From IMG/VR virus record IMGVR_UViG_3300029554_000003, positions 77,064 through 141,063 of that record: a DNA stretch of 64,000 bases. One strand, given 5' to 3'. Under the pieces are notes generated by a model, which was given only the letters and a program-made list of their open reading frames with translations, was not told where the DNA came from and searched no databases. The position numbers and the translations under genes were made by a program. Shown in pieces: positions 44,337 to 63,383 of this stretch; the stretch's first letter is position 1, and every line of letters begins with the position of its first letter. The stretch comes from a virus. Its lineage: Duplodnaviria > Heunggongvirae > Uroviricota > Caudoviricetes.

Positions 44337-44816
44337 CTATACAATCATATAATCGTCTACAAGACCCTTGGCCTTAGCACGAGCAGGCATGTAACGTCCA
44401 GCCCACATGCGCTTAATAACATCCTCGGGTACACGCTCAACACCACTACGCTTAGCATTCTGCGGCAAAGCAATGTCAAGACCACGGTTGAAGTACACAA
44501 GGATAACCTTATCGGCGTTCTTGCCGCAATTCTCGACAGTCTTACGAAGCGACTTCCAAGAGATGTGAGTAGCATCTGCAATTACGTTAATATCATTACA
44601 GAGGTTGTCATTAATCTGATTATAGAAGTCCTTGATAACGTCCTTCTCGTATTTAAAATAATCCATAGAAGGAAGGAAATCAGGGTCGTTTGCCATATAC
44701 TCAAAGCGGATATAATCGCGCGAAACAATCTCGGCATCAAGCTCGGCGTAATGCTCGTGCGCCCAAAACGACTTGCCGCAGCCAGGAATTCCTGCTAAAA
44801 TATAAAGGTTAGCCAT
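44337..44816 (-). CDS. P-loop polynucleotide-kinase-like protein (AAA_33/Pnk-like)
   Basis: N-terminal LYILAGIPGCGKS Walker A. About 160 aa. Size and motif resemble the kinase domain of T4 Pnk and related zeta-toxin-like kinases. Confidence 0.5.
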   Translation of the reverse strand: MANLYILAGIPGCGKSFWAHEHYAELDAEIVSRDYIRFEYMANDPDFLPSMDYFKYEKDVIKDFYNQINDNLCNDINVIADATHISWKSLRKTVENCGKNADKVILVYFNRGLDIALPQNAKRSGVERVPEDVIKRMWAGRYMPARAKAKGLVDDYMIV

Positions 44817-45283
44817 ATTTATCTCCTTCTTTTGGCTTAATGTCTAATCGTAAAGTCGATGTGCTTTTCTTGCTTTATCATATTCCTGCTTTGGATTATA
44901 TTCATCTTGACATTCATGCGTTAAATGCCAAGATTTACATACCTTACATTTATACGGGCGAAGAACTTTAGAACTATTAATAAATATAGTCTTTGCCGCG
45001 CACAATGCATCATATCGACAGGAATACTTTCTCTTTGATTTACAAGTATCTATGTTTTATACCTTACATGAACAAAGTGACTACAAAGAAAACTTTTATC
45101 ATACAATTTTGTAGTATCTTCAATCATAGGACGTGTATCGTTATAATATCCACAATCCACATTGCTGCAATGTTCTTTGATTCTGTTTTGACACACAGTA
45201 CAAATAAAAGTAGACATTGTATATTCTTTCTCTTGGTCTTTCTTTAAATCTATTATATCATTTTAAATTGCCGTCTGTCAATA

Positions 45284-45321
45284 AAAAAAATAGGGTAACT
45301 TCTTTTATAGAAGTTACCCTA
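45284..45321 (-). terminator. intrinsic terminator ending the structured-RNA transcript
   Basis: Reverse-strand GGGTAACTTCT-ataaa-AGAAGTTACCC followed by TTTTTTTT. Confidence 0.6.
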
Positions 45322-45810
45322 CATAATGTGTGGAGGAAGTGACTGGTGACGCTCCAGATTCCCTGTTAAGGAACACATCGCTTTCGAGGCGAGTCCGAAC
45401 GCTGGTTCGATTCCACTTCCTTATGGCGGCTAACCGAAGTGCTGCCCTCCATTCCCTCTCGGGAACGCACCGCTTTCTAGGCGGGCCTAGTCGCTGGACT
45501 AGTTGATTAGCCAAAGCAGGATGCGTATTCACGGCGCATCCAGAGGGTCTGTTTTTACGGTGTTTCAGCTCACCTATTACTCCGTGAAAGCACTCGCTTA
45601 TCTCCTAGCAAGAAGGCTCGCTATTCTCTCGAATAGCTATGCGGTGTTGCCTATTCTACCGCAAAAGCTGTTTTCGGCACAGCTTCAAAGCCACCGCCAA
45701 TAGGGGCGTGAATGTATGGCGGGGCAACTGGAATACGATTCCAATACTTGAATCACAAGTACGTTCTGATTAGCAGTCAGACCTAACTCCCCGTTAGTTG
45801 TCTGCCCCAT
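45322..45810 (-). ncRNA. GC-rich hairpin-dense non-coding transcript (~490 nt), function unknown
   Basis: Over 50% GC in a 35% GC background. The ORFs on the track here (45314..45532-, 45503..45703+) are short and lack RBSs. A promoter-like sequence lies at ~45812-45838 on the reverse strand, and the terminator is at 45284-45321. More than eight perfect local hairpins of 5-7 bp. Confidence 0.4.
45717..45808 (-). tRNA. tRNA-Ser(GCU)-like, class II, with encoded CCA (non-canonical T-loop)
   Basis: Hand fold on the reverse strand. Acceptor GGGGCAG/TTGCCCC. D-arm CTAAC-GGGGA-GTTAG. Anticodon arm TCTGA-CUGCUAA-TCAGA. Long variable hairpin GTACTTG…CAAGTAT. T-arm TTGGA-ATCGTAT-TCCAG. Ends G-CCA. 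The T-loop departs from the T54/A58 consensus. Confidence 0.45.
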
Positions 45811-45985
45811 ATAAACAGCATCAGACCTCTCTCTGTCAAGTTTCGCTATAAAGAAGCGCTGCGAGTTATCATTATTCTGTATCTAATGCTGTTTTAAACA
45901 GGTAGGAGCGGCGTAAGAGATTCTAACTCTCACCAAAGGCTTGGAAGGCCTGTATGCTAACATTACACCAACGCCGCATATAAGG

Positions 45986-46059
45986 TGACAGTGATTAGAT
46001 TTGAACTAATGACCTCACGGGTATGAGCCGTGCGCTCTAACCATCTAAGCTACACTGCC
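45986..46059 (-). tRNA. tRNA-Met/Ile2 (CAU)
   Basis: GGCAGTG…GCTTAGATGGTTAGAGC…CACGG-CUCAUAC-CCGTG…CATTAGTTCAAATCTAATG-like T-arm…CACTGTC-A. Confidence 0.7.
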
Positions 46060-46073
46060 AAATAAACTAAAGG

Positions 46074-46146
46074 TGGGCCGTCAGGGGGTCGAACCCTGGA
46101 CCTTGGGATTAAGAGTCCCCTGCTCTACCAACTGAGCTAACGACCC
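46074..46146 (-). tRNA. tRNA-Lys (CUU)
   Basis: GGGTCGT TA GCTCAGTTGGTAGAGC A GGGGA-CUCUUAA-TCCCA AGGTC CAGGG-TTCGACC-CCCTG ACGGCCC A. One G·A at 27-43. Confidence 0.65.
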
Positions 46147-46154
46147 ATATAAGG

Positions 46155-46227
46155 TGTCCACGGGTAGAATTGAACTACCGACACGCAGATTTTCAGTCTA
46201 CTGCTCTACCTACTGAGCTACATGGAC
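46155..46227 (-). tRNA. tRNA-Phe (GAA)
   Basis: GTCCATG TA GCTCAGTAGGTAGAGC A GTAGA-CUGAAAA-TCTGC GTGTC GGTAG-TTCAATT-CTACC CGTGGAC A. Confidence 0.7.
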
Positions 46228-46231
46228 ATAT

Positions 46232-46306
46232 TGGCTTCTCTATTATGACTCGAACATAAACTAACGGAACCAAAATCCGTTGTGCTGCCAATTACACCAT
46301 AGAGAA
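46232..46306 (-). tRNA. tRNA-Gln (UUG) with encoded CCA
   Basis: U1:A72 acceptor TTCTCTA/TAGAGAA. Anticodon arm ACGGA-UUUUGGU-TCCGT. T-arm TTATG-TTCGAGT-CATAA. Then G-CCA. Confidence 0.65.
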
Positions 46307-46313
46307 ATTTTAG

Positions 46314-46385
46314 CGTGCCAGAGAAGATTCGAACTTCTATCTCGAGAGCGTCACCTCGCAATTTTGCCAGTTAAACTACTAACAC
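46314..46385 (-). tRNA. tRNA-like gene with non-canonical anticodon loop (6 or 8 nt)
   Basis: Perfect acceptor GTGTTAG/CTGGCAC (with G·U pairs). U8A9. D-arm GTTT-AACTGGCA-AAAT. Perfect T-arm AGAAG-TTCGAAT-CTTCT. Total length 72 nt. The anticodon helix CGAG(G)/(T)CTCG encloses GTGACGCT, so no 7-nt loop is possible. Anticodon undetermined. Confidence 0.45.
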
Positions 46386-46597
46386 ACTACTCACTAGTGG
46401 TAATTTTAAGGATAATTACGAACCTTTTAGTCTAAAGCTAGCTAGGCTTTAGAAGTTTGAAAATATAGGATTAAGCTATTTCCTATATTTTTCTATATAA
46501 CTAGTCGAACGTAAGAGCCGTATTTAACCAATTAAACTACCTCGCGTGATAAACGCGAAGGTTGGAGTCGAACCCACATCTGCTCTATGCTCGATTT

Positions 46598-46640
46598 GTT
46601 AACTATATTATATAAAATTATTTGGCGTTTGTCAAATTAA
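46598..46640 (-). promoter_or_regulatory. tRNA cluster 1 promoter (TTGACA-N17-TATAAT, near-identical to the one at 52325-52365)
   Basis: Reverse strand: TTGACAAACGCCAAATAATTTTATATAATATAG. The leader begins ACAAATCGAGC…GTGGGTTCGACTCCAAC… Overlaps the 3' end of the GIY-YIG gene. Confidence 0.6.
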
Positions 46641-46644
46641 TTTT

Positions 46645-47280
46645 TTAAATAAATTTCCAGTGTTTTTGATATGCAATTGTATTTGCTTTAGCTGCACTTC
46701 TAATATGCACAGTAATTCCACATATCTTTTTGGCTTGAGTATATTTATTCTCTTTTAAATATTTAGCCGCTTCTGTTATGGAATTAAAAATGATATTATC
46801 CGGTAGCATTAAAATTCTTTTACTATATTTTTGACGAACTAAATCTTGACTACTAAGAATAGAAACATTGCATTCTTCACAAGCTATTTTAACAGTTGAA
46901 ACATCACAACCGAAATATTGTGCTGTTTTCTTTTGATTTTGTAATTTTAAATACATATTAGCAATTTCTTGGTAATCGTAATATTTTTTACTATCGCCAC
47001 CTTTTGTAGCATTATATCCAGTATGACCATATGTGTTTAATTTAGCAATCCAATATTCTTCTCTTTTTGAAGAGTCTTCGGCAGAACATTCTTCTAATTG
47101 CTCAACATGAAAATGCTCAACGCCATATTTATTCATAGCAGAATACAGAGGACGTTTTTCACATCTTTCTTTTTTGCTATCTACAATATGCTCTCTAAAT
47201 CTTCTTTCGAGTGAAAAGTTGGTTTTGCCAACATATTGTTTTCCGTTAACATCATTTGTAATTACATAGATAAAAGCCAT
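46645..47280 (-). CDS. GIY-YIG homing endonuclease
   Basis: N-terminal IYVITNDVNGKQYVGKT…R…EH (GIY…YIG…R…E/H class). C-terminal DNA-binding region. Paralogue of 52591..53232. Sits at a tRNA cluster, as SegB does in T4. Confidence 0.65.
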   Translation of the reverse strand: MAFIYVITNDVNGKQYVGKTNFSLERRFREHIVDSKKERCEKRPLYSAMNKYGVEHFHVEQLEECSAEDSSKREEYWIAKLNTYGHTGYNATKGGDSKKYYDYQEIANMYLKLQNQKKTAQYFGCDVSTVKIACEECNVSILSSQDLVRQKYSKRILMLPDNIIFNSITEAAKYLKENKYTQAKKICGITVHIRSAAKANTIAYQKHWKFI

Positions 47281-47433
47281 ACAGTCCTCAATCCTACCTC
47301 AATAATAATATTGAGTAAGCAGGCGTTGAGGTTTATTCGCTTTTCCTTATGGTAGCTACTCCAATAAGTAGCTTACTCAATTATACAATATAAAAATCGT
47401 GTTATAGCGATTATATGATTTAGACCAAGATAG

Positions 47434-47524
47434 TGCAAGATTTTGGACTCGAACCAAAAATTTTCGCTAATCTGGCGATAATACAGTTTATAAGTCTGCT
47501 GTTTTACCATTAAACTAATCTTGC
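47434..47524 (-). tRNA. class-II-like tRNA embedded in a 17-bp extended stem; anticodon loop CUUAUAA (UAU?)
   Basis: Acceptor GCAAGAT/ATCTTGC. U8A9. D-arm GTTT-AATGGTA-AAAC. Anticodon arm GCAGA-CUUAUAA-ACTGT (A31·A39). Long variable hairpin TCGC-CAGATTA-GCGA. T-arm TTTGG-TTCGAGT-CCAAA. Flanked by the perfect 17-bp inverted repeat GACCAAGATAGTGCAAG/CTTGCACTATCTTGGTC. Confidence 0.5.
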
Positions 47525-47563
47525 ACTATCTTGGTCTTTATAAACTATAATCCAAAGTTTACA

Positions 47564-47637
47564 TGGACGATATTAAATTTGAACTAATGACCTCTTACGT
47601 ATCAATCAGCGCTCTAGCCAAACTGAGCTAACCGTCC
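47564..47637 (-). tRNA. tRNA-like paralogue of the CAU tRNA with disrupted anticodon stem (possible pseudogene)
   Basis: Acceptor GGACGGT/ATCGTCC. D-arm GCTC-AGTTTGGCTA-GAGC. T-arm ATTAG-TTCAAAT-TTAAT, nearly identical to 45986..46059. The anticodon region CTGATTGATACGTAAGA cannot form a 5-bp stem. Confidence 0.35.
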
Positions 47638-47681
47638 ATGCAATCTTTAGAATATAAATCTAATAAGTAACTGCTTTTAAA

Positions 47682-48587
47682 CTATTGGTGAGACTTTAGC
47701 CACTTCTGAACATACCAAAGCTGGCCGCACCCACCACCAATATCATCTTGACCAGCTGGGTCAAATGTCCTTACATTATAACCCTTTTTTAAGAACTTAT
47801 TCTGAAACTTCTTAATAACACTTAAGTTCCTAAACGCCGCGTCTTTCATGGTTTCATCAGATGCGCAAACTACACTAAAAGTAAAATTAAAGATTACAGG
47901 AGAAAACAGGTCTGTAAGTTCTTTAAAATTCTTATCTTCATTATTCGTTCCATCAATGCAGTAATTTAAGAACGGATGCCTACCTGTCTCTTTCCACCAG
48001 ATAGTTCCAGCATCCCTAATCTTTTGAAGATTCATCTTATTCTTAAATGGAATTAATACATTTCTCTCTGTATCATTGGACTTATGAATAGAAAATTGCA
48101 AACCAATTTTATCTATCTTCTTAGATAGAGCAATCATCTTTGCAAAAGTTTCATCATTATCGCATCCAATAGTCGAAAGTAGTAACTGAGCATTACTAAA
48201 CTGTTGATGAAGATTGATAATTGCTTTTTCAACTTCTGTCCAATTTAACATAGGCTCGCCCATGCTCATAAACATAAACTGTAACTTTTTACACTTTTCG
48301 TTAATGTCATTAATTAAACCTTTATCAGTTAAAACGGTTACAATCTGGTCTACAATTTCATCAGCAGTAAGATTCCTAACAAACTTAGACCCCGTGCCGC
48401 AAAAGCGACATCCAACAGGACAACCGCTCATAACACTACAACAAATTACAGTTCTATCATAGTAACTATTATATTTATATAGAACTGCTTCAGCGACCAT
48501 ATCTTTTTTTGTAAAGACATACTTCCATACATCGCCAGAATTTCCTTCAAAAGTCTTAAAATTCATAACAGCACTTTCATTTAGCAA
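47682..48587 (-). CDS. RlmN/Cfr-family radical-SAM RNA methyltransferase
   Basis: CCSVMSGCPVGCRFCGTG matches the CxxxCxxC cluster of the family. MSMGEPMLN matches MGMGEPLLN. LLSTIG matches TLSTSG. FSIHKSND matches ISLHAPND. C-terminal GQDDIGGGCGQLW matches GDDIDAACGQLAG. At 301 aa it is shorter than bacterial RlmN at the N-terminus. Confidence 0.65.
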   Translation of the reverse strand: MLNESAVMNFKTFEGNSGDVWKYVFTKKDMVAEAVLYKYNSYYDRTVICCSVMSGCPVGCRFCGTGSKFVRNLTADEIVDQIVTVLTDKGLINDINEKCKKLQFMFMSMGEPMLNWTEVEKAIINLHQQFSNAQLLLSTIGCDNDETFAKMIALSKKIDKIGLQFSIHKSNDTERNVLIPFKNKMNLQKIRDAGTIWWKETGRHPFLNYCIDGTNNEDKNFKELTDLFSPVIFNFTFSVVCASDETMKDAAFRNLSVIKKFQNKFLKKGYNVRTFDPAGQDDIGGGCGQLWYVQKWLKSHQ

Positions 48588-48817
48588 TCTTCGTCAAAAT
48601 AATAGTCTTCTAGCATAGCGGGAATGCCGTCAAGCAGCTCATTCTCGCCAAGAGTCTCTAAAGCAACATCAACCAAGTCGGCATCGTACATATCATAAAG
48701 CAGATCAAGATATGCGTCACGGTCAGATTTACTAATCTCCATTGTATTCCTCTTCGTCATACTCTCCATCATTGCATATCCAATCATTAACGCATACCTT
48801 GTCAGGTTCGTCATCAA
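48581..48817 (-). CDS. hypothetical acidic small protein
   Basis: 78 aa, after the conserved promoter copy at 48900-48960. Confidence 0.35.
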   Translation of the reverse strand: MMTNLTRYALMIGYAMMESMTKRNTMEISKSDRDAYLDLLYDMYDADLVDVALETLGENELLDGIPAMLEDYYFDEDC

Positions 48818-48974
48818 TTAAATGCTTGCGGCAAATTCCTAGATACCAAAGGTCTGTAGACTCATAATATTTGCAATTACCGCATATATTAGTCGCTTCA
48901 ACCATTATTTCTTCTTTCTCTTGGTTTCTTTAACTATATTATAGCATATCTTTTAACCAAAAGTCAAGAAAAAA

Positions 48975-49346
48975 TTAGGCATAAAATTCGTTGAAATTAT
49001 TAAGCCAATCCAAGAGAGCTAAAGATGTAAGTGGCGCCATGTTCCATAACTGCTCAGCACAATAAGTGCTAGTATGAGAAGGATTCTTTTCCATAGCATT
49101 TACAACAAGGTCATGGAAAACAGCACGGTCAACCTTTTTAAGTTCATCTACAATCTTCTCAATATCTTTCTGCTGACTAAGGTACACAATGAAATCAAGA
49201 ATCATAGCAGTCATTTTATTAAGGTGCATACTACACATTTCACTCATATTTCGACTCCAATTTAGGATGAATTGCCCATTCACCGCACCTGTCCCCACTT
49301 TGGGGAGAAGGATGTACAGTATAAACATTATAATCTGTTGGGTCAA
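48975..49346 (-). CDS. hypothetical protein
   Basis: 123 aa ORF. Confidence 0.35.
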   Translation of the reverse strand: MTQQIIMFILYILLPKVGTGAVNGQFILNWSRNMSEMCSMHLNKMTAMILDFIVYLSQQKDIEKIVDELKKVDRAVFHDLVVNAMEKNPSHTSTYCAEQLWNMAPLTSLALLDWLNNFNEFYA

Positions 49347-49438
49347 TAATTACATTTGGAGGAAAACGATAGCAACTGCAATTTTTGTAAAATCTGCAAT
49401 TGCCGCAGATACGCTGGACCTTATGCTTGACTTCCATT

Positions 49439-49975
49439 TTACTCTCCAAGCTCAATCTTCTTCTGCTGAACATCGAGCCAAATATCATGAATATTAACAG
49501 GAGTAAGATTATTCGTGTCAACACCTACATGATACGTCCAATCAACAAGACCCTTGGGAGCCGCATCATGGACATGACCGTACAGAATAACATTGGCGCT
49601 GTCTCCACACATTTCCTCGGGACGCTCGTGAATCATAATGAAACTGACATCGTTGTAATCAAGGCAAGATACCTTGTTTTCGATAATCCAGCCGAGCTTT
49701 TCCATTTCAGCAATGCGCTTCTTGGTATCGTGATTGCCGGGAATCACATGAATCTTTCCATTAAGACGAGAACCGTATTTAGCTACAGTCTCAAGCGGTC
49801 CCATGAAACAATCACCAAGATGGTAGACAGTATCATCAGGAGATACAACGGAATTCCACTTCTCAACGATGTGTTCGTTCATATCCTCGACATTATTAAA
49901 AGCACGCGACTGCTCACAATAGGTAATAATATTCTTGTGAGAAAAGTGAGTGTCGCTTACTACAAAGATGCTCAT
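49439..49975 (-). CDS. calcineurin-like metallophosphoesterase
   Basis: Likely start is MSIFVVSDTHFSH at 49975 (GGAGA RBS). Has the D-x-H, GD, GNHD and GH…H signature motifs. Confidence 0.65.
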   Translation of the reverse strand: MSIFVVSDTHFSHKNIITYCEQSRAFNNVEDMNEHIVEKWNSVVSPDDTVYHLGDCFMGPLETVAKYGSRLNGKIHVIPGNHDTKKRIAEMEKLGWIIENKVSCLDYNDVSFIMIHERPEEMCGDSANVILYGHVHDAAPKGLVDWTYHVGVDTNNLTPVNIHDIWLDVQQKKIELGE

Positions 49976-50033
49976 TGAATCTCCTTTCGATTTCTTAAAT
50001 ATATTATAACATAATATATAGCCAATAGTCAAC
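49976..50033 (-). promoter_or_regulatory. conserved promoter + leader copy
   Basis: Reverse strand TTGACT-N18-TATAAT, immediately after the terminator at 50034-50066. Confidence 0.55.
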
Positions 50034-50066
50034 AAAAAAAGGGACTCAAGAGAGTCCCTACAAAAA
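50034..50066 (-). terminator. intrinsic terminator closing tRNA cluster 2
   Basis: GGGACTC-tctt-GAGTCCC followed by TTTTTTT on the reverse strand. Confidence 0.6.
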
Positions 50067-50076
50067 TATCAATGTG

Positions 50077-50609
50077 TGCGGAAAAAGTTTATTCAGTGTT
50101 GGATGGTCATAAAAAATTGCTATATGAAGTAACTGAATAATAATCACGCACATTTGCGTCTATATAGCTCGCACACTATATAGACGAGAAAGGGGTTTAC
50201 AAATAACGACAAGGAAAAAATGTAAAGAGGGTGGGTGCTACTTTCTAATGAAAGCTGCTCTTATTTAAACATATAACGAAGTAACTCTTTACTAATCACT
50301 TGCCTTGCAAGAGAAAGCGATACGGAAATAGGCGTTTCAGTTTGAGTAATCAGCTCGGAATGGAGATTTGAAGTATCTGAAACATTATCACGTATCGCCC
50401 ACTTTAGTAAAATAAATGCGGAAAAGATAAAATCAGTTTAAACGTGCAACCGACACAGAGCTGGAGTCGAACCAGCGAGTACATTTTTCCAGAATGAAGT
50501 AACTGATTTATCATCACGCATTATAATAAATAAATGCGGAAAAGTTAGATTCAGTGTATAATATTAACATACCAAAATTAATGTGAAGTAACTGAATCTT
50601 AATCACGCA
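50077..50609. repeat. family of ~75-105-nt repeat elements (U1 50077-50150; partial 50277-50304; U2b 50326-50397; U3 50417-50520; U4 50535-50609)
   Basis: Each unit starts TGCGGAAAAG-[8-10 nt X] and ends TGAAGTAACTGA-[X' complementary to X]-(T/C)CACGCA. Internal sequences differ. U3 contains a perfect T-arm-like hairpin GCTGG-TTCGACT-CCAGC. Confidence 0.7.
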
Positions 50610-50735
50610 TTTAATAAACATTGGTGCCGCATCTAGGTAACGCTCCTAGCCAGTCTAAGACACTTGATTTACAGTCAAGACCTCGTCTTTAAAGGAATAC
50701 TGCGGCAGTTATATTTTAAAGTTTAGTATGCCTTG

Positions 50736-50817
50736 TCTTGGGTTCGGGAGTCGGACCCGAATGCCTTATGGCGCTATTTTTTGAGAATAGTGTGTATACC
50801 AGTTCCACCAACCCAAG
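50736..50817 (-). tRNA. tRNA-Leu (CAA)-like, class II, embedded in an extended stem
   Basis: Acceptor CTTGGGT/ACCCAAG. D-stem GTG/CAC. Anticodon arm CTATT-CUCAAAA-AATAG. Variable hairpin GCC-ATAA-GGC. T-arm TCGGG-TCCGACT-CCCGA (T-loop variant). Flanked by an ~18-bp imperfect inverted repeat AGTATGCCTT…/…AAGGCATACT. Confidence 0.45.
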
Positions 50818-50838
50818 GTAAGGCATACTAATATGTTT

Positions 50839-51288: not shown

Positions 51289-51545
51289 TTACAAAGCTCC
51301 TTTTCTGCTTTTGGATAAAATTATTTGGACAGAAGAATGTTATGAAGATATTCATCGGCTTCTTCAAACGTATCGAAGTCCTTGATAATCTCAAAACGAA
51401 CAGTTGAGCAATCAGTGTTGACACGAATAGAGTAGATGCCGCAAGTCTTTTCCTTGCAAATGACGAACTGCTTCATAACAAACCTCTTTCTCTCTCGGTT
51501 TATATATATTATATAATATTATAAACCAAAAGTCAAGGAAAAATA

Positions 51546-51869: not shown

Positions 51870-52300
51870 ATTGGTCGCGAAGTGCCGCTGACGCTGCGAC
51901 TTAACAGAGCTTATGAGACTCCGTGAGATACTGACCTCCCACCCGCAATTAAAGTAGTAGTTTTCACATCTGCCGAGGTTTGAAAACTACCAAAATATAC
52001 CAGATTCCTCTTCCCCTAGGCGTTTCTTTTCAAGTATACGCTGGCCCGCATTGTCTACGGCTACAGAGACGGCATATATAAAATCTTGCAAGCAAGATAA
52101 TATAATCACGTGGACGGTTTCAAACTGGGAAAGCCGCCAACCCTTTAATCTATAATCCCTGCAAAAGATTATAGAAGTCGGGAGACATTTACCTTGCAGC
52201 GATAACCTCTCCCCAAGCTATAACACAATCGTTAGGTGCTATTCTCACCAATTGAACTACAGCCCCTTGCGGGAAAGACAGGAGTCGAACCTGCATCTTC
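51870..52300 (-). ncRNA. second GC-rich structured non-coding region (~430 nt) behind the duplicated tRNA-cluster promoter
   Basis: No ORF of 60 aa or more. The leader after the promoter begins ACAAAATCGTGAAGGTGAAGATGCAGG-TTCGACT-CCTGT (isolated T-arm hairpin), then GGGGCTGTAGTTCAATTGGTGAGAATAGCACC (tRNA 5'-half-like), then ~350 nt of hairpin-rich sequence with no matching 3' half. Confidence 0.35.
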
Positions 52301-52324
52301 ACCTTCACGATTTTGTTAATTATA

Positions 52325-52365
52325 TTATATAAAATTACTTGGTATTTGTCAAGTAATTTTTTTAA
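52325..52365 (-). promoter_or_regulatory. tRNA cluster 2 promoter (TTGACA-N17-TATAAT)
   Basis: Reverse strand TTGACAAATACCAAGTAATTTTATATAATATAATTAACAAAATCG. Near-identical to the promoter and leader at 46598-46640. Confidence 0.6.
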
Positions 52366-52590
52366 CAGGCTGGCTCTTTCTGTGCTGCCCAGAAATTTTA
52401 TGATTCAGAGTCATATGTTCTACTGTTGAACTAAGAGCCAAAAAGTGGGCAAATTTATATAGCGACTGCCCAAACCGCTAAATTGACTTGGGGTAGTACA
52501 GGCGAGTTCAAAGCTCGGTCTACTACCACTTGGAGAGTGTCTAAGATTAGCACTCTATTTTAGTAATATATATATTACTAAAATACAACA

Positions 52591-53232
52591 CTAACTTTCT
52601 ACATATTCCCAATGGAAACCATACGATGTTTTGTTAATATTTTCACAAACCTGCTTAATATGCCTTGAAATTCCTTGTATAGATTTATTTGTAGTATAAT
52701 TGTTATCAAATAACCATTGAGACGCATCGTGCAATGATTGAAAAATTTTATTTTCTTCTATCAGTCGCACTTTTTTAGAATATCTTTCTTTACAAAGAGT
52801 ATTTGGTCGTAGCATTTCTATGCCACATTGTTTACATGCAAGTCGGACAGTATCAGCGCAACAATGAAAATATTTTGCTACTTTTATTGTATCATGTGTT
52901 TGTGAATACATGTCAGCTATTTTTTTATAATCATAAAATGAACAACCGTCTCCACCAATTGTAGCATTGTATCCATTGCGATAAGTATCTAATTTTGTTA
53001 TCCAATACTTTTCTTTTTCGTCAACTTCATCTGACGAACATTCTTCTAATTGAAAGGCATGAAAGTGCTCTACGCCATATTTTTTCATAGCTTTATAAAG
53101 AGGTCTACCTTGTATTTGTTCTTTTTTGCTGTCGCTTAAATGTTGGGCGAATCTTCTCTTAATTGTAAAATTAGTTTTTCCAACATATTTTTTGTTGTTG
53201 ACATCATTTACAATAACATAAATATAAGACAT
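52591..53232 (-). CDS. GIY-YIG homing endonuclease (second copy)
   Basis: Likely start is MSYIYVIVNDVNNKKYVGKT at 53232. Paralogue of 46645..47280, also adjacent to a tRNA-cluster promoter. Confidence 0.65.
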   Translation of the reverse strand: MSYIYVIVNDVNNKKYVGKTNFTIKRRFAQHLSDSKKEQIQGRPLYKAMKKYGVEHFHAFQLEECSSDEVDEKEKYWITKLDTYRNGYNATIGGDGCSFYDYKKIADMYSQTHDTIKVAKYFHCCADTVRLACKQCGIEMLRPNTLCKERYSKKVRLIEENKIFQSLHDASQWLFDNNYTTNKSIQGISRHIKQVCENINKTSYGFHWEYVES

Positions 53233-53502
53233 TTTATCACCCACTTAAATAATGAATGGAGCCAACTTAGGGTGCTGCCCCCTATGCTTCGCTTTACAAG
53301 AGCGATGTATTACTGTTATACTAAGCTGGCTTTACCAAAAAGAAAAATGAGCCTGCAATACTCTAGAAATCTTGCAGGCTCTAACACCACTATTACAATA
53401 TAAAAGTTGCGCAACAAAAATTATAACTTTTTGTCCAGAACTTTTATTTTGTAACTAAAAATATTATATCATATTGATATAAAGTCTGTCAAGAACTTTT
53501 TT

Positions 53503-54400: not shown

Positions 54401-54465
54401 GATACCTTCCTCTCTTTCTTTAACTATATTATATAACTTCTTAAACCTCTTGGCAAGAACTTTTT

Positions 54466-57204: not shown

Positions 57205-58152
57205 TTAATTTTCAAACCAGTTTCGCAACTCGATAACCGAGGGGCAAGTTCCACGACCTTTCTCGCGGCACTCTTCTACAAACTCAGGGATTGCGTCCAT
57301 GAGACGAGGTTCAAATGCAAGCTTGGTCTTGATGTTCTTGATAGCATCAATGTCGCGTCCAGTCCAAACCTGCTGTAAAACTCCACGAGCCTGCTTCCAG
57401 TTCTTGTACCAAGGAGTCTTATATTTCACCATGAAACCGTTCGCATCCTCGAAGACAAAGCCCTCGATGTATGCACGTGCGGCCCACTTGTCAATAAAGG
57501 CTTCAAACTCCTGCCAGTTAGCAATGACTTTGCTAAGAACCTTGCAATAGAATCCGAAATGTCCCGCTACGTCAATAAGTGTATAGTACCCCGCATGGCT
57601 ATAGTTGAAATCATTGTACACCAAGTCCAAAAGCACGAGGTGAGGATGCGAATACTCAACAATATGCGGGTCATGGATAGGGTCAATGCACTCGAAGACA
57701 GCAGTGCAGTCATTCTTGTGCAGATATTCTGCGAATTCCTCCTGCTGTGCAGTGGTCAACGTCTTGTCAAGAACGTCACGGATATATCCCGCGAAGTCTC
57801 CTTCATTCGTGCTCTTGGATGCGATGAACAGTTTACCGTCCTCGGTCGGGTCGGCAGAAATCATCGCAAGGAATCCGTTAGACTTGACATATGCACACAC
57901 AGGGAACACAAGATTCTCGCGCAGGCTAGCCATTTCAGTCTCAGGACGTTCTCCAATATTGAAGAACTTGTTGTACGAACGTGCAACAACCTTATTATCA
58001 TCTTTTACAAAAAGTCCGCGTGCTTTAACATTAATATCATCCCATGCTTGGTTGAAAAAGCACTTGTTTGAGAAATTAAAAGAAGAGATTCCATTGGCAA
58101 GATGTTTCTCGCGCACAAGCGAGCTATTACGCAGTATATCGACTTCGTTCAT
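57205..58152 (-). CDS. ATP-dependent RNA ligase-like nucleotidyltransferase
   Basis: Candidate motif I is K in VKSNGFLAM. Motif IV is EGFVFED. Motif V is VKYKTPWYKNWK. At 315 aa the size fits the Rnl2/DraRnl class. Confidence 0.5.
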   Translation of the reverse strand: MNEVDILRNSSLVREKHLANGISSFNFSNKCFFNQAWDDINVKARGLFVKDDNKVVARSYNKFFNIGERPETEMASLRENLVFPVCAYVKSNGFLAMISADPTEDGKLFIASKSTNEGDFAGYIRDVLDKTLTTAQQEEFAEYLHKNDCTAVFECIDPIHDPHIVEYSHPHLVLLDLVYNDFNYSHAGYYTLIDVAGHFGFYCKVLSKVIANWQEFEAFIDKWAARAYIEGFVFEDANGFMVKYKTPWYKNWKQARGVLQQVWTGRDIDAIKNIKTKLAFEPRLMDAIPEFVEECREKGRGTCPSVIELRNWFEN

Positions 58153-58200
58153 TTATCTTCCTCTCTCTTGGTTTAATAATATTATACCATATATAAGTGT
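58153..58200 (-). promoter_or_regulatory. conserved promoter + leader copy
   Basis: Reverse strand TTGCCG-N17-TATAAT then TATTAAACCAAGAGAGAGGAAG. Confidence 0.5.
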
Positions 58201-58467
58201 GTGCGGCAAATATTTTTTTCTACAAAAAAAAGGAAAAGGAACTAGTCCTTTCCCTTAGTAGCATTTTCTTCAAATTCCATGCGCTCTAACTTTTCCTTAC
58301 GTTTTGCCTTATAAGTATCGTCTTTGCGCTGACGAATTAGCTTTGCTTTATGGGAAAACTTTTCAAAAGTATCATCATCGCTATACTCAAGTTCGTCCCA
58401 GTCACGAATTTTCACAATAAATCCTTTCAAAGAAAAATGCTGTCTAATATAAGTCTGACAATCTGTC

Positions 58468-58544
58468 TGGTGGGCTATACAGAACTCGAATCTGTAACCT
58501 AAAGATTAGAAGTCTTTTGCTCTATCCATTTGAGCTAATAGCCC
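58468..58544 (-). tRNA. tRNA-Arg (UCU) with encoded CCA
   Basis: GGGCTAT TA GCTCAAATGGATAGAGC A AAAGA-CUUCUAA-TCTTT AGGTTA CAGAT-TCGAGTT-CTGTA ATAGCCC A CCA. Confidence 0.7.
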
Positions 58545-58569
58545 GTCAAACAGATTGTCTAGAACTTGT

Positions 58570-58860
58570 CTAATAAGTGATGATATAGACCTTTCGGCTA
58601 GTATCGTGATAAATCTGCGTCACTTCTGCTAAAATATTGTGTAGTACAGCATCGCCAACAGTCTTCTTAGCTTCGTCATCGCCATATGCAAGAATAAAAT
58701 GCGGAACAATTGCATCATATGTATCACGAACAGGAACGCGCTTACCATTAACGAAATCTACAAGGGTAGTATACTGTTCACACCATACAAATACAAAATT
58801 CGGATTGAGCTTTGTAATGTATGAATTCATTTCCTTGTCAGGAATAATAATACAATTCAT
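58570..58860 (-). CDS. hypothetical protein
   Basis: 96 aa ORF. Confidence 0.4.
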   Translation of the reverse strand: MNCIIIPDKEMNSYITKLNPNFVFVWCEQYTTLVDFVNGKRVPVRDTYDAIVPHFILAYGDDEAKKTVGDAVLHNILAEVTQIYHDTSRKVYIITY

Positions 58861-58948
58861 TACTTAAATCGCTTTCCATAGTAATATGCGTATACAGAAA
58901 AAAGAAAAATAGAAACAATTCCTATAATTACAATCAACATGTTATCAC

Positions 58949-59392
58949 CTAATATACTTTTTCATAAATAAAAGAATCGTCACCAGTATAATAAAAATGC
59001 TGGATACCCTTATCACGCAAAGCGTGCAAGCACGCAGGACAACTTCGTGCTAAACCGAAATTAAATCGCTTTCCATTGCAGATACGATAAGTATATACCT
59101 TTACCTTTGAATAGTCAAGGTTGACATCAATACACTTTGGAATATTCAAAAGACAATCAATCTCTGCATGAAGATAATCATGAATAGGTTGACCATTCTC
59201 TCTAAACGTGCGATATTTGCGATTATACTTCTTTTGCAAAGGATTGGTCTTGCGACTATTGTGACCAGTAGCAAGAACTTTGCCTTTATAAGACATAACA
59301 GTGCCGAGTTTGAAAGGTTTATATGTAGATTCCAGTGCCGCCTTTCGCGCCAAATCAAACATCTTCATATCATGCTTACTAAACTCAGCCAT
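58949..59392 (-). CDS. CDA-fold zinc deaminase (dCMP deaminase or TadA-like)
   Basis: HAEIDCL (H-A-E) and SCPACLHAL (PCxxC) zinc-binding motifs. 147 aa. Confidence 0.55.
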   Translation of the reverse strand: MAEFSKHDMKMFDLARKAALESTYKPFKLGTVMSYKGKVLATGHNSRKTNPLQKKYNRKYRTFRENGQPIHDYLHAEIDCLLNIPKCIDVNLDYSKVKVYTYRICNGKRFNFGLARSCPACLHALRDKGIQHFYYTGDDSFIYEKVY

Positions 59393-59688
59393 TTATTAAA
59401 TCCTTTCACATCTTATATTATATATAATATCATAAGATGTATCCAGCGTCAAGAACTTTATTTCACCAAAGTAAAATTAGGATGATAACCAATTGACTTG
59501 CCGCATAGTGTAAGCAAGTTTACACAATTCGAGATAATACGCTCATACTCTTTAGTGCTATTGGCATTCTCCAATAGAGAGATAGAAGCGGCCATAGAAG
59601 TTTTTGCAAACTCTACAGGGCTTAACTCAATATAGATTTTTGTTTCTGGTGATAAATCATTCCAGTTCATATAACAGCATTCCCATCT

Positions 59689-60282
59689 TTAATCTAATAC
59701 TAGTTCCGTATTCTTCTTATATCGTTCATAATCCTCTTGCGGAACATCGAATACAGTAAAGATACCTGTCTTAATATACACGCCACCCATATTACCGTCA
59801 CGCTTAATGCGACTAAGCATGTCTTTCCATCCGTCCTCAATCACTTCAACGCGCTGTTTGTCTGGCGCTACGACATATGCGGCAGAATATTTGCGACCTT
59901 CTTCTTTGCTTACTTCACCGCTAAGATAAAGATACTGTGGAGTTTTACTAATATCTTCCTCATATGAACGATATATAGAAACCATGTTATCCATGAGGTT
60001 TCCTAAAACATAGATTTGAAGGATAGGACGCACATGCTTGTAATCACAGATAACAGTTGAAAGCCAGTCGTTCAAAGACATGTCCTCGCACTTAAACTCT
60101 GCACCAAAATCGTCCATCAACATAACTTCAAAGTCAAGTTCTTCTTCATAATCTTCGATGTTAAAGTCAATCGCTTCGGAGATATAATATTCAATTTCAT
60201 CATATGAAATAAGATTATCAAATTGTCCATATAAAGTATATGGAATATCATTTACAATAGCTTGAATCTTGCAATAACGCAT
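59689..60282 (-). CDS. hypothetical protein
   Basis: 197 aa ORF. Confidence 0.4.
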   Translation of the reverse strand: MRYCKIQAIVNDIPYTLYGQFDNLISYDEIEYYISEAIDFNIEDYEEELDFEVMLMDDFGAEFKCEDMSLNDWLSTVICDYKHVRPILQIYVLGNLMDNMVSIYRSYEEDISKTPQYLYLSGEVSKEEGRKYSAAYVVAPDKQRVEVIEDGWKDMLSRIKRDGNMGGVYIKTGIFTVFDVPQEDYERYKKNTELVLD

Positions 60283-60283
60283 A

Positions 60284-60856
60284 TTAACCTTTCATCCTAT
60301 AACGTCGAGAGTATTCCATCATACAACACGCGGCCGCTTGTGCAACATTTAATGAACGAATACTGCCATCTTGACGAATATAAATCATTTCATCGCACTT
60401 ATCAATGATTTCTTGCGGCAAACCATTGCACTCGCTACCATATACAAATGCGGATTTCATTGGAATATCTGCATCGAAAATATTCTGAGGATTATATTCA
60501 GGAATATTATCTACAGCAAAGATACTATATCCAAGAGGATGAAGAATTTCAATGACTTCATCAAAATTATCCGCATGATATACACGCTCTACATGAGTGC
60601 TACCCACGGCTCCTCTTCTGTCAAAGCGCTTGCGGCCAACGACATAAGTTTCCTTTGCAAGAAAACAATTAGACGCACGAATAATTGAACCTACATTAAA
60701 ACCGTGGTCAAGATTGATGCAGATGTTCACTAGCGGCATACGGTTAGGTTGAAGTGCCGCACGAATTTCCTCAGCAGACCACTTCTTATAAATGTCAATT
60801 ACATTGTTGCTTGGCTTTGCTTCGGTATTGATACCATGCGAATACTGAGTAATCAT
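60284..60856 (-). CDS. SpoU/TrmH-family RNA 2'-O-methyltransferase
   Basis: SPOUT motifs: …FVYGSECNGLPQEII… (motif 2-like) and …IYIRQDGSIRSLNVAQAAACCMMEY (motif 3, xSLNVsxAaai). 190 aa. Confidence 0.55.
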   Translation of the reverse strand: MITQYSHGINTEAKPSNNVIDIYKKWSAEEIRAALQPNRMPLVNICINLDHGFNVGSIIRASNCFLAKETYVVGRKRFDRRGAVGSTHVERVYHADNFDEVIEILHPLGYSIFAVDNIPEYNPQNIFDADIPMKSAFVYGSECNGLPQEIIDKCDEMIYIRQDGSIRSLNVAQAAACCMMEYSRRYRMKG

Positions 60857-61094
60857 AATATCCTTTACATATTAACCAGAATAGTAAGCATTAAATATCC
60901 ATAGTTCTTATCAACTTTAATATTGAAAGTAACCACATCTGCCTTTAAAATTGCGTCATGTTGTTCCTTTATCCATTCATTAAATGGAACAGAAGGAGTG
61001 CTCATTTCAGGAGTGTTATACATCGCAAATGAAATATATAAGTTATTTCGCGTATCATCATCAATAGCATCTAACAGACAATAAACATTCATAT

Positions 61095-61283
61095 TTACCA
61101 CTCAATCAATGAAAGCTGGTCAGTAAGGCGCTGGGACAGTTCATCATCTTCAATATAGAAAATATCTTCCTTATCATTTACAAGATAATTAGAGATAATC
61201 TGTCCAAAACGCTGGTCAGGATACTGTTCCCATAGGTCTTGAAACTTCACAAGAATATCATAGATTCTATTTACATCACGCAT
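61095..61283 (-). CDS. hypothetical small protein
   Basis: The track ORF runs to 61376; the likely start is MRDVNRIY at 61283. Confidence 0.3.
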   Translation of the reverse strand: MRDVNRIYDILVKFQDLWEQYPDQRFGQIISNYLVNDKEDIFYIEDDELSQRLTDQLSLIEW

Positions 61284-61626
61284 AATTGTTCCTTTCAAAT
61301 ATAAAATCAAGAGACTCCTACTGGTAATGCTCCAGTTTAAACGCCTTTGCAGGACGCTGCATAACTTTTCTGCCAAGGAGTTTCTTGACTTTATACTTGT
61401 ATTATATTATATATAAAGCCAAAGGTTAATTAAAACATTTCAAGAAATGCCTTATAGATTTCAAAACGAAACTTTTCAAAACGTGCGGCAAGTGCAACAT
61501 ATGAATAGCCGCATATAAAAAGTACGTATAGTACAAATAGACAATCTGCCATTATTACTCCCTAGAATTAAACATAAGACATGCTACAGTGTAGCCGAAA
61601 AAAGAAACCAATAGCAAAACAAATCA

Positions 61627-61809
61627 TTATTTCTTCTTCCAAATATTATCGCAGGTATATGGAACATTGTCAATATTTTTCTGTTGCGGACTTGCCTTAG
61701 AACGAATCTTTCTAGTTTCTAGCGCTATATGCTCCATATAACATTTTCCAACAATTGCCGCAATCACAAGAATAGTGATACAAATAATTGTAATAGACCC
61801 AATATCCAT
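61627..61809 (-). CDS. small membrane protein
   Basis: 60 aa with an N-terminal transmembrane segment (IICITILVIAAIVG). Conserved promoter copy upstream. Confidence 0.4.
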   Translation of the reverse strand: MDIGSITIICITILVIAAIVGKCYMEHIALETRKIRSKASPQQKNIDNVPYTCDNIWKKK

Positions 61810-61895
61810 TTTATCTCTTTCTCTTGGATTTTATTTGAATCTATTATATAATAAAAAAGTCCCAAAGTCAATAGAAACTTTGGGACTAATTTATA

Positions 61896-62828
61896 TTATT
61901 TTGTATTGACTACTGGAGTAGAGCCTTGCGGCACAACGACAGTATTACCATTCTTTGACATTTCCTTTAGAGCATCAATGTACTCTTGGGTTAGAACATT
62001 ATCAGTTAGAGACTCGTTGAGTACACGGTTTGCTTCTGCTTCTTTAGTAGCTTCAATAACCTTAGTCTCACCCTTAATCTTTGCAGTCTCCTGCTGATTC
62101 TGAGCCTTAGCTTTCTCTACTTCTGCGGCCTGAGAATCAGCATAAGCATTGGTAATGGATTTAGCATAAGAAATATCCTGAACGCTTACTTGCTCAACAG
62201 TAAGACCAATCTTAGACCACTTCTTTTCAAGAGCTTTTTGGACAGCCTTTGTGTACTGAGCGCGGTCAGTTAGCATTGTAATTGTATCGAATTGACCTGA
62301 AACTTCACGTGCAACAGAGCGTAGGTCATTAGCCGCGTAATTCTTAGTAAAGTTCTCTTGAGTGCCATATTCAGTGTAAAGATACTCAGCCGTCTTCGGG
62401 TCAAGGCTGTAGTTAATCTGAATATCAACATTAGCAGAAGAACCTGACTTATCATTTACAGTTACGCAAGGACCATCAGCGGAGCCACCATCATAGGAGT
62501 ATTCTGTGTCTTTACCGTAAAAGTTGATTAGGTTATTGCGCGTATCAAACGTAATTATATTGTTCCAAGGCGCAGTGAAATGAAAGCCTGCGTCTGTAGT
62601 AGACCCAGCTAGATTGCCGCCAAGAGAACGAAGAACAACTACTTCACCAACGTCTTGAGAATAGATGCTGCTAAGACCAATAGCAACTAGACCAAGCACG
62701 ATAACTATGACTCGCCTTCCTAGCGGAATACGCTCTTCATGTTCGTCTTCTTTGAAGAAGGATAGACATGTAGCAATTCCAGTAATCGTAATAAGAATAC
62801 CGATAGTAAAAAAAAGAATTTTAAACAT
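61896..62828 (-). CDS. SPFH/band-7 (stomatin/prohibitin-like) membrane protein
   Basis: Two N-terminal transmembrane segments, then an SPFH-like core (…VGEVVVLRSLGGNLAG…FHFTAPWNNIITFDTRN…), then an Ala/Glu/Lys-rich coiled-coil tail. Confidence 0.5.
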   Translation of the reverse strand: MFKILFFTIGILITITGIATCLSFFKEDEHEERIPLGRRVIVIVLGLVAIGLSSIYSQDVGEVVVLRSLGGNLAGSTTDAGFHFTAPWNNIITFDTRNNLINFYGKDTEYSYDGGSADGPCVTVNDKSGSSANVDIQINYSLDPKTAEYLYTEYGTQENFTKNYAANDLRSVAREVSGQFDTITMLTDRAQYTKAVQKALEKKWSKIGLTVEQVSVQDISYAKSITNAYADSQAAEVEKAKAQNQQETAKIKGETKVIEATKEAEANRVLNESLTDNVLTQEYIDALKEMSKNGNTVVVPQGSTPVVNTK

Positions 62829-62870
62829 TATAACCTTTCATCGTAGTTTGCTTCAATATTCAATTGTAAA

Positions 62871-63383
62871 CTAAATTGCTTTTAGCTGGTCAATGATTGG
62901 CAAAATTTGCATATTATTTGTGCCGATAGCGTAATTTTGCTGCTCTGAAATAAACACAATTCTGTCAAACGGCTCCCTGTCTTGCGGCGAAACCTTGCAT
63001 CTATACATTTCTGCAATTTCTTTTTCGCTTAGACGATGATATTTATCACGATTCTTATTGCGCGCAACTGCTACATTCTGTGGAGTCTCAACCCAAACAC
63101 AAATCACTTCACAACCATTGTAATTGACATTGTTGAAAAACTTATCGCGCTCGACACGATTGATATTGCGGTCATTTGCCACAACATAGCGATGTGATTT
63201 TAGAGCAATGTTGACTGCATTGTAGAAACGTTTGTCAACTGTATTAGCATCTTCTGAATTATACATGCGGCAATTGTCTCGCTTGATTGTCATACAATCT
63301 TCGTGCGAATCTTGAATTGCCTTTGCAAATACAGATTTACCACTTTGAGGTACACCGCACATTAAAATCAATGTATGCTTCAT
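62871..63383 (-). CDS. P-loop polynucleotide-kinase-like protein (second copy)
   Basis: LILMCGVPQSGKS Walker A. 170 aa. Paralogous in architecture to 44337..44816. Confidence 0.5.
   Translation of the reverse strand: MKHTLILMCGVPQSGKSVFAKAIQDSHEDCMTIKRDNCRMYNSEDANTVDKRFYNAVNIALKSHRYVVANDRNINRVERDKFFNNVNYNGCEVICVWVETPQNVAVARNKNRDKYHRLSEKEIAEMYRCKVSPQDREPFDRIVFISEQQNYAIGTNNMQILPIIDQLKAI

Follow-up and report, generated by a model that had tools for sequence, protein, structure and literature searches.

A probable RNA repair pathway of dispersed genes, with RNA-modifying enzymes, in the early/tRNA region of a human-gut siphovirus

The phage represented by a 64,000-nt stretch of IMG/VR record IMGVR_UViG_3300029554_000003 (positions 77,064 to 141,063; hereafter the window) encodes two kinases related to T4 polynucleotide kinase (Pnk), a calcineurin-type metallophosphoesterase (MPE), an Rnl1-type RNA ligase and two putative RNA methyltransferases between window positions 44337 and 63383, interspersed with tRNA-like genes (Table 1). 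We conclude that these genes are a real and conserved RNA repair and modification toolkit, a richer and dispersed version of a known phage strategy for sustaining protein synthesis. The reading we favor as probable is a dispersed RNA heal-and-seal pathway that, together with RNA-modifying enzymes, occupies the early/tRNA region of this gut siphovirus. Family membership, intact catalytic residues, conserved synteny and the linked occurrence of kinase, phosphoesterase and ligase in other phages were observed directly, and we infer substrates, the order of action and a counter-defense purpose. A first-pass annotation had singled out seven ORFs of this region; all seven are present, all on the minus strand, and profile searches confirmed six of the seven family calls.

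The two kinases (kin1 and kin2) are assigned to the Pnk clade, as the first-pass annotation had proposed, and RNA would be their substrate. In addition to its AAA_33 domain, kin1 matches the PHROG family phrog_505 ‘polynucleotide kinase’ (6.9e-18) and the N-terminus of phrog_8238. The P-loop motif GxxGxGK[ST] reads GIPGCGKS in kin1 and GVPQSGKS in kin2. Both proteins were aligned with the kinase domain of T4 Pnk, taken from the T4 record, and with the kinase domains of two fusion proteins described below. Residues K15, S16, D35, R38 and R126 are invariant throughout, and the equivalent of T4 Pnk Asp85 lies within one alignment column. These five residues are essential to T4 Pnk; Asp35 (the general base) and Arg38 make up the 5'-OH acceptor site, and Arg126 binds the NTP (PMC2831316). 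A HAD-type 3'-phosphatase domain is absent, as both kinases end after the kinase domain and match only positions 1-139 of the 295 in phrog_505. The two paralogues share 26% identity, and kin1 has 27% identity with the SPbeta-like fusion in its kinase domain. The best solved relative of kin1 is PSTK; those of kin2 are PSTK and the kinase domain of Clostridium thermocellum Pnkp (4gp7, 4jst).

The ligase is identified by its sequence as a covalent nucleotidyltransferase of the Rnl1 family with all catalytic motifs in place, which bears out the earlier call of an Rnl-type enzyme. It scores 144 bits against RNA_lig_T4_1, for which the Pfam cut-off is 28.3. Nucleotidyltransferase motifs I (Lys99), III (Glu159), IV (Glu227-Gly228) and V (Lys240, Lys242) are invariant relative to T4 Rnl1. 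The Rnl1-specific residues Arg54, Lys75, Phe77, Gly102 and Lys119 are likewise invariant in the alignment, and all five are reportedly essential in T4 Rnl1 according to mutagenesis by the Shuman laboratory. The T4 RnlA equivalog model TIGR02308 gives 33 bits, far below its cut-off of 242, and among solved structures the closest are tRNA-ligase domains of fungal Trl1 (6e-13). The strongest PHROG match is to positions 419-698 of the 737 in phrog_8238 (6e-77), and the protein is 36-43% identical to the C-terminal domain of an SPbeta-like protein (732 aa) and a Staphylococcus Sextaecvirus protein (766 aa), both of which hold AAA_33, Metallophos and RNA_lig_T4_1 domains in one chain. Because these fusions carry kinase, phosphoesterase and Rnl1 ligase in a single polypeptide, the separate phage genes can be regarded as a split version of the fused enzyme. 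This comparison, already drawn in the first-pass annotation, essentially holds: the best phage relatives of the ligase are the fusion C-terminal domains. The phosphoesterase is unlike the central domain.

The phosphoesterase scores 42.6 bits against Metallophos_2 (cut-off 27) and its metal-binding motifs are complete, with SDTHF, LGDCF, GNHD, MIHE and YGHVH corresponding to DxH, GD, GNH[DE], H and GHxH. Its calcineurin-type assignment therefore stands, but it does not belong to the Pnkp/lambda-phosphatase branch, for which 2',3'-phosphatase activity in RNA healing is proven. The best models are YfcE-like, the best solved match is aq_1665, and there is no significant alignment with the central domain of the SPbeta-like fusion.

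The gene neighborhoods of related phosphoesterases are informative. In coliphage phi92 (locus L049, 4001-5891), gp097, gp096 and gp095 are contiguous. The phosphoesterase gp097 belongs to the same family as the window protein (31% identical, E 3e-14), gp096, labeled hypothetical, matches the Rnl1 ligase family (3.8e-14), and gp095, labeled ‘ATPase’, matches AAA_33 (1.8e-10). On the related gut contig L011, the gene of a 40% identical phosphoesterase overlaps with the end of another gene for an Rnl1-family ligase and is followed by tRNAs. In Listeria phage LP-064, a homologue has an Rnl2-type ligase at a distance of ~1 kb and RtcB at 3.5 kb. Because of these neighborhoods in three other phage lineages, an RNA-healing role for the phosphoesterase is, on balance, likely by analogy.

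The window has 39% G+C and its genes lie chiefly on the minus strand. Its source is a ~141-kb human-gut siphovirus, whose proteins are found in identical form on an ENA contig of 141,103 bp and on contigs from human-gut metagenomes. No close DNA relative is present among 50,697 phage records. The terminase shares 31-40% identity with its counterparts in large siphoviruses of the SPbeta supergroup (Geobacillus E3, Enterococcus VRE9_4 and H1, gut phage Phass-1 and Alicyclobacillus KKP_3916). The minus strand has seven sigma-70 promoters that match the consensus perfectly and eight that nearly do; together with the intervening terminators they cut the 20 kb into many short transcription units, at least eight. 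Judged from these signals, it is an early/tRNA region read by the host RNA polymerase, and its layout is typical of such regions. The term ‘module’ used in the first-pass annotation does not fit, as the genes are spread over many short units with unrelated genes mixed in.

Synteny was determined by tblastn of the window proteins against 28 IMG/VR loci. The ligase is 87-98% identical in 23 contigs and 60% identical in two more (L041 and L042). Nearly all close relatives have TROVE, orf263 and Rnl2 in this order on one strand, and on the other kin2, SPFH, SpoU, orf197, deaminase, Rnl1, orf270, Apf-like, MPE, the radical-SAM gene and kin1. L041 and L042 encode kin1 (81%), kin2 (51%), MPE (60%), SpoU (86%), Rnl2 (75%) and TROVE (65%), all within 10 kb of the ligase. 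Since the same genes recur in the same order in 23 close and two more distant relatives, their grouping is not due to chance. SpoU and the deaminase occur as alternative alleles among the close relatives.

The phage encodes a minimal homologue of the RlmN/Cfr-family radical-SAM RNA methyltransferases, as had been predicted. The gene is where it was expected, but its most likely start codon is the ATG at 48566, the one chosen in the gene call of the source contig, rather than 48587. The TIGR00048 match spans model positions 81-342 of 355 and reaches 111 bits, compared with an equivalog cut-off of 290. The protein is without the ~80-residue N-terminal domain, and its homology to RlmN and Cfr covers the whole catalytic core (PDB matches: RlmN 6fz6, 2e-20; Cfr, 5e-15). 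The CxxxCxxC motif (CPVGCRFC) and the equivalents of both methyl-transfer cysteines, Cys118 (in VICCS) and Cys355 (in GGGCGQL; E. coli numbering), align to RlmN 6fz6 and are invariant in six phage homologues. This clade comprises 42 phage records. Members at 42-54% identity come from T5-like phages of Stenotrophomonas and Xanthomonas, from phages of Vibrio, Salmonella and Aeromonas, and from a 462-kb phage. We found no published study of it in the literature. The gene sits among tRNAs in the window and in two T5-like phages. The records of Xanthomonas JGB6 and Stenotrophomonas BUCTxx99 label it ‘prohibitin family protein’, which looks like an annotation error. In the T5-like JGB6, ARAGORN also predicts a permuted tmRNA (locus L004, 9542-9950) with the tag VTANDSYFEVALAA, in the tRNA region ~1.5 kb downstream of the RlmN-like gene.

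The second predicted methyltransferase belongs to the SpoU/TrmH (SPOUT) family, in agreement with the earlier assignment, and scores 91.7 bits against a Pfam cut-off of 29.7. Its best solved relatives are TARBP1 and TrmH Gm18 enzymes (1e-6 to 1e-5) and TrmL. The subfamily models (TrmH Gm18, TrmL, TrmJ and RlmB) all score far under their cut-offs. Homologues occur in nine phage records only.

The tRNAs had been described as two clusters. They are indeed interleaved with the enzymes, but they amount to 13 to 14 tRNA-like genes spread from 45905 to 61382, several of them non-canonical. The count combines 11 ARAGORN calls, two genes detected by Rfam only and a tRNA-Met-like module at 51872-51947. 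The Val(GAC)-like gene (46313-46385) and the Ile(GAU)-like gene (47563-47638) have 8-nt anticodon loops. The UAU-anticodon tRNA has an extra long variable arm, whose stem covaries and whose loop CAGAUWA is conserved in three lineages (the window; L011, 4172-4262; L012, 3798-3888); other relatives have a tRNA-Ile(UAU) of normal length. Four tRNA-like genes (52370-52440, 53260-53330, 51872-51947 and 61311-61382) have non-canonical T loops, GGCAGCA twice, AGCGUCA and AGCAUUA. The odd T loops and the 8-nt anticodon loops may be relevant to escape from tRNA-targeting nucleases. The two GIY-YIG endonucleases reported among the tRNAs are both present.

Two further RNAs, Y1 and Y2, resemble YrlA. Read from the sequence, Y2 consists of a T arm, a 7-bp closed ‘acceptor’ hairpin and a D arm. 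The alignment of Y1 in 16 relatives contains compensatory T-stem changes and four different closing hairpins, which change fast. Between Y1 and the tRNA-Met-like module is a ~270-nt non-coding core (51948-52216, minus strand) that is nearly invariant in 19 relatives and has neither an Rfam match nor a match in the phage collection. A tRNA-Met is called at the place homologous to the module in L018, L031 and L034. We also considered the RNA of 52320-51870 as a two-piece tmRNA and rejected this, as a G3:U70 pair and a plausible tag with Ala-Ala at its end are both missing, ARAGORN makes no call, and a one-base deletion in one relative would break the only candidate frame. The same RNA has no Rfam match to RNase P RNA, group I intron or tmRNA at E up to 5. 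Tandem tRNAs that only mimic YrlA were rejected for Y1, as neither half has the remaining tRNA and the promoter leaves no room for it.

Just past the window, the same contig (locus L006) carries genes for an Rnl2-type ligase and a TROVE/Ro60 homologue, divergent from the kin2 operon. By their family assignments, both extend the RNA toolkit beyond the window. Y1, Y2 and the phage Ro60 probably constitute a Ro60/Y-RNA surveillance unit.

The CDA-fold deaminase had been counted with the RNA-acting proteins. Its CDA-type motifs hold up, with HAE and CxxC zinc motifs invariant in 20 homologues, and its match to dCMP_cyt_deam_1 falls just under the cut-off, but it groups with dCMP and cytidine deaminases and not with TadA. 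The family profile finds the dCMP deaminases 2hvv of Streptococcus mutans (8e-6), T4 Cd (6e-5) and that of cyanophage S-TIM5 (1.6e-4), whereas TadA/ADAT2 reaches only 0.011. In the predicted structure (pLDDT 91.8), the top 50 fold matches are nearly all cytidine, dCMP or blasticidin-S deaminases, and TadA is not among them. The gene lies near gyrase and ThyX in relatives. The protein is most likely a dCMP or cytidine deaminase, as profile and predicted fold suggest, and it probably serves nucleotide metabolism rather than tRNA editing and probably lies outside the RNA toolkit.

Other genes lie between these. The C-terminal half of the protein encoded at 54979-55752 (minus strand) matches an aggregation-promoting-factor (Apf) domain (7.5e-39) and phage ‘transglycosylase’ PHROGs; the Apf-type domain is typical of lactobacilli and may hint at the host. 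Scans of Pfam, NCBIfam, PHROG and PADLOC gave no match for orf197 and nothing useful for the other unassigned ORFs of the region. The predicted structure of orf270 (pLDDT 93.9) has a TIM-barrel-like fold whose structural neighbors are only generic TIM barrels. Its four cysteines raised the suspicion of a U32-type RNA hydroxylase, which was dropped, as hhalign against E. coli TrhP was not significant. On the same contig past the window (L006, 514-3693), the gyrase B gene is interrupted by a GIY-YIG endonuclease gene, and related contigs have split and unsplit versions.

Table 1. Features of the RNA repair and modification region and its surroundings. Coordinates are window positions unless locus L006 is named.
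Feature	Coordinates	Strand	Evidence and remarks
kin1, Pnk-type polynucleotide 5'-kinase homologue, kinase-only, 159 aa	44337..44816	-	AAA_33 1.9e-14
kin2, second kinase-only Pnk-type kinase, 170 aa	62871..63383	-	AAA_33 5.6e-13
Calcineurin-type metallophosphoesterase, 178 aa, candidate 2',3'-phosphate end healer	49439..49975	-	Metallophos_2 8e-11; phrog_547 6e-43
Stand-alone Rnl1/Trl1-type ATP-dependent RNA ligase homologue, 315 aa	57205..58152	-	RNA_lig_T4_1 6.3e-42
Minimal RlmN/Cfr-family radical-SAM RNA methyltransferase homologue, 294 aa	47682..48566	-	TIGR00048 RlmN 4.8e-32; Radical_SAM in Pfam
SpoU/TrmH-family (SPOUT) RNA 2'-O-methyltransferase homologue, 190 aa	60284..60856	-	SpoU_methylase 6.1e-26
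Rnl2-type RNA ligase homologue	L006 8599-9531 (same contig, just past window base 64000)		PF09414 4.4e-16
TROVE/Ro60 homologue, 486 aa	L006 5157-6617 (same contig, past window)		TROVE 3.8e-14
Y2, YrlA-like permuted tRNA mimic	46494-46606	-	After 12/12 sigma-70 promoter 46635-46607; YrlA 26.6 bits, E 7e-4 in 241 nt
Non-coding unit: promoter 52352-52324 (12/12), Y1, core, tRNA-Met(CAU)-like module ending ACCA (51872-51947)	51872..52352	-	
Y1, YrlA-like tRNA mimic	52217-52319	-	YrlA 20.7 bits; T arm, closed acceptor-like hairpin, D arm
Six tRNA genes: Gly(UCC), Met(CAU), Lys(CUU), Phe(GAA), Gln(UUG), Val(GAC)-like	45905..46385	-	ARAGORN; Rfam tRNA 39-68 bits
UAU-anticodon tRNA (47433-47524) and Ile(GAU)-like tRNA (47563-47638)	47433..47638	-	ARAGORN, Rfam
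tRNA-Leu(CAA)	50735..50817	-	ARAGORN
tRNA-Gln(CUG)-like	52370..52440	-	Rfam tRNA 46.2 bits; missed by ARAGORN; T loop GGCAGCA
tRNA-Thr(UGU)-like	53260..53330	-	Rfam tRNA 42.9 bits; T loop GGCAGCA
tRNA-Arg(UCU)	58468..58544	-	ARAGORN, Rfam
tRNA-Cys(GCA)-like, doubtful	61311..61382	-	ARAGORN only, not Rfam; also called in L018, L034, L039
CDA-fold deaminase, 147 aa	58949..59392	-	dCMP_cyt_deam_1 3.2e-5, just under Pfam cut-off
GIY-YIG homing-type endonuclease	46645..47280	-	GIY-YIG 1.7e-11, NUMOD1; sits between tRNA groups
Second GIY-YIG endonuclease	52591..53232	-	GIY-YIG 4.3e-12; 213 aa on source contig; odd tRNAs on both sides
SPFH/Band-7 protein	61896-62828	-	Between kin2 and SpoU; conserved in relatives
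orf197	59689..60282	-	Abuts SpoU stop codon directly; kept with SpoU in close relatives, absent in L041/L042
orf270	55849-56661	-	Conserved in all relatives; four invariant C-terminal cysteines C236, C240, C248, C251

We propose the following sequence of events. A host ribonuclease would cut tRNA or another translation RNA and leave 2',3'-cyclic-phosphate and 5'-OH ends. The metallophosphoesterase may then take off the 3'-terminal phosphate, one of the two Pnk-type kinases would phosphorylate the 5'-OH, and the break could be resealed by the Rnl1-type ligase or by the Rnl2-type ligase encoded just outside the window. In parallel, phage or host tRNA or rRNA may be modified by the minimal RlmN, through adenine C-methylation of the kind that gives m2A37 or m2A2503 in cells, and by the TrmH-like 2'-O-methyltransferase. 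The Ro60 homologue and the two Y-RNA-like tRNA mimics may add RNA surveillance.

Several observations weigh against this pathway. The toolkit genes are scattered across 19 kb, belong to at least eight different short transcription units and have unrelated genes among them. Motif I of the ligase reads KSNG, with Asn replacing T4 Asp101, and the ~120-residue C-terminal tRNA-specificity domain of T4 Rnl1 has no counterpart in it. The phosphoesterase family is present in 1381 phage records, and, of four other phages inspected, two (Enterococcus phage 156 and Staphylococcus phage HSA30) have no annotated ligase within 4 kb. Neither a 2H cyclic phosphodiesterase nor Tpt1 or Hen1 turned up, and paired HxT/S motifs occur in none of the uncharacterized ORFs of the region. 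The RlmN-like gene is not near tRNAs in four of the six other phages checked, so that proximity to tRNAs fails as a general rule, and L041 and L042, the more distant relatives, do not have the gene. For the surveillance unit, the YrlA scores of Y1 and Y2 (20.7 and 26.6 bits) lie far below the gathering score of 69 for Rfam RF02553, and the Ro60-binding motif GNCGAA(N)G is not evident in either RNA. Moreover, the TROVE gene is 14-20 kb away on the opposite strand, whereas the YrlA genes known elsewhere share the strand of the Ro60 gene and are within 4 kb of it (PMC4201824).

The many non-canonical tRNA-like genes interleaved with the enzymes, and the co-conservation of enzymes and RNAs, would also be expected if the enzymes chiefly matured and customized the odd RNAs of the phage itself rather than repairing damage from host defense. 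The methylases would then add modifications that host enzymes would not, and kinase, phosphoesterase and ligase would act in the processing or joining of RNA fragments, such as those left when the closed acceptor hairpin of the tRNA mimics is cleaved. Some YrlA-like RNAs of relatives have an acceptor-like hairpin of 7-8 bp, and a stem of this kind is an RNase P substrate in Mycobacterium smegmatis and acquires CCA (PMC4201824). However, no intron-containing or split tRNA gene that needs ligation was found, the same three activities recur in the phi92 cassette and in the fusions of phages without these odd RNAs, and the classical role of Pnk and Rnl1 is repair. We consider this account unlikely, though it is the strongest competitor of the heal-and-seal pathway.

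The dispersed layout with its many promoters could instead mean that these are unlinked early genes, of which only the ligase acts on RNA. The kinases would act on DNA ends or small molecules, as the breadth of the AAA_33 family and the PSTK match of kin1 allow, and the phosphoesterase, from a very widespread family, would be a generic phosphatase or nuclease. The deaminase, dCMP/CDA-like and near gyrase and ThyX in relatives, would make dUMP, and the methylases would target host rRNA, given that 23S rRNA is among the substrates of RlmN and of RlmB, a SpoU relative. Against this stand the Pnk-specific acceptor-site residues D35 and R38 kept in both kinases, the repeated fusion or adjacency of kinase, phosphoesterase and ligase in independent phage lineages, and the co-inheritance of the set across diverged relatives, which together render it improbable. 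Equally improbable is a private nuclease-resistant decoding system in which the truncated RlmN clade and the TrmH-like enzyme, as phage-specific tRNA methylases, would mark the anticodon loop or elbow of phage or host tRNAs against cutting by anticodon nucleases, the promoter-driven YrlA-like mimics with their fast-evolving acceptor hairpins would serve with phage Ro60 as decoys or sensors for these nucleases, and the split repair set would mend the rest.

What is known of RNA repair in phages comes largely from T4 and from jumbo-phage surveys; here the predicted pathway is encoded by separate and duplicated genes in abundant human-gut siphoviruses. A very common and unstudied phage phosphoesterase family gains a candidate role through its association with Rnl1 ligases and Pnk-type kinases, and virus-directed RNA methylation has candidate enzymes in the minimal RlmN clade and in the TrmH-like protein, which is rare in phages. 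The RNAs and the TROVE protein are likely Ro60/Y-RNA partners outside mycobacteriophages, in a gut phage. If the counter-defense reading is true, the gut bacteria that employ tRNA-cutting immunity can be predicted from these genes. The most useful by-products of the analysis are the phi92 cassette, a mis-annotated three-gene example that is testable in E. coli, the minimal RlmN clade and the Y-RNA-like elements.

The closest classical system is that of T4, where Pnk (pseT) and Rnl1 (rnlA) repair tRNA-Lys cut by the host anticodon nuclease PrrC (T4 record). Both phages share the Pnk residues K15, S16, D35, R38 and R126, all nucleotidyltransferase motifs and a location in the early region near a dCMP deaminase gene. 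T4 Pnk has a fused HAD phosphatase, whereas the phage described here has a separate calcineurin-type phosphoesterase as candidate healer, two kinase paralogues and a ligase closer to fungal Trl1 ligase domains. The predicted trifunctional proteins of SPbeta-like phages and Sextaecvirus (phrog_8238) are related through their ligase (36-43% identical) and kinase (27% for kin1) domains. They combine the activities in one chain, in contrast to the separate genes up to 13 kb apart here, and their central phosphoesterase domain is from another branch than the Metallophos_2/YfcE-like protein of the window. The phi92 cassette has the same three protein families as separate proteins. Its genes are contiguous, whereas those of the window are dispersed, with a duplicated kinase and with RNA methylases, Ro60 and tRNA mimics added.

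The Pnkp/Hen1 system, which the first-pass annotation had cited as a fused counterpart, follows the same logic of kinase, calcineurin-type phosphoesterase and ligase, and an RNA 2'-O-methyltransferase is predicted here too. The phage set is not a member of it, as TIGR04075 gives 20-30 bits against a cut-off of 750, and only on the kinases. Its ligase is Rnl1-type and not a Pnkp ligase domain, its methyltransferase has a SPOUT fold unlike that of Hen1, and no Hen1-type methyltransferase occurs among the ORFs scanned in profile searches. Ro60 (Rsr)/YrlA systems, such as the Salmonella rsr-yrlBA-rtcBA operon and those of mycobacteriophages, are alike in having TROVE on the same contig and in the YrlA arm order, which two RNAs share here. 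They differ from this phage, in which RtcB is absent, the YrlA scores are below the gathering score and the RNAs are far from TROVE on the opposite strand. RlmN and Cfr, which make m2A or m8A at A2503 of 23S rRNA and, as m2A37, modify tRNA, share the radical-SAM motif and both mechanistic cysteines with the phage protein, and differ in the N-terminal domain it does not have and in its score of 111 bits against the equivalog cut-off of 290.

Large phages are known to combine tRNAs, Rnl1 and Rnl2 ligases, kinases, occasional calcineurin-like phosphatases and TROVE proteins (PMC7824862); SpoU- and RlmN-type enzymes are not mentioned in that survey. The description of the set as ‘unusually rich’ in the first-pass annotation is fair, but such combinations have precedents in large phages.

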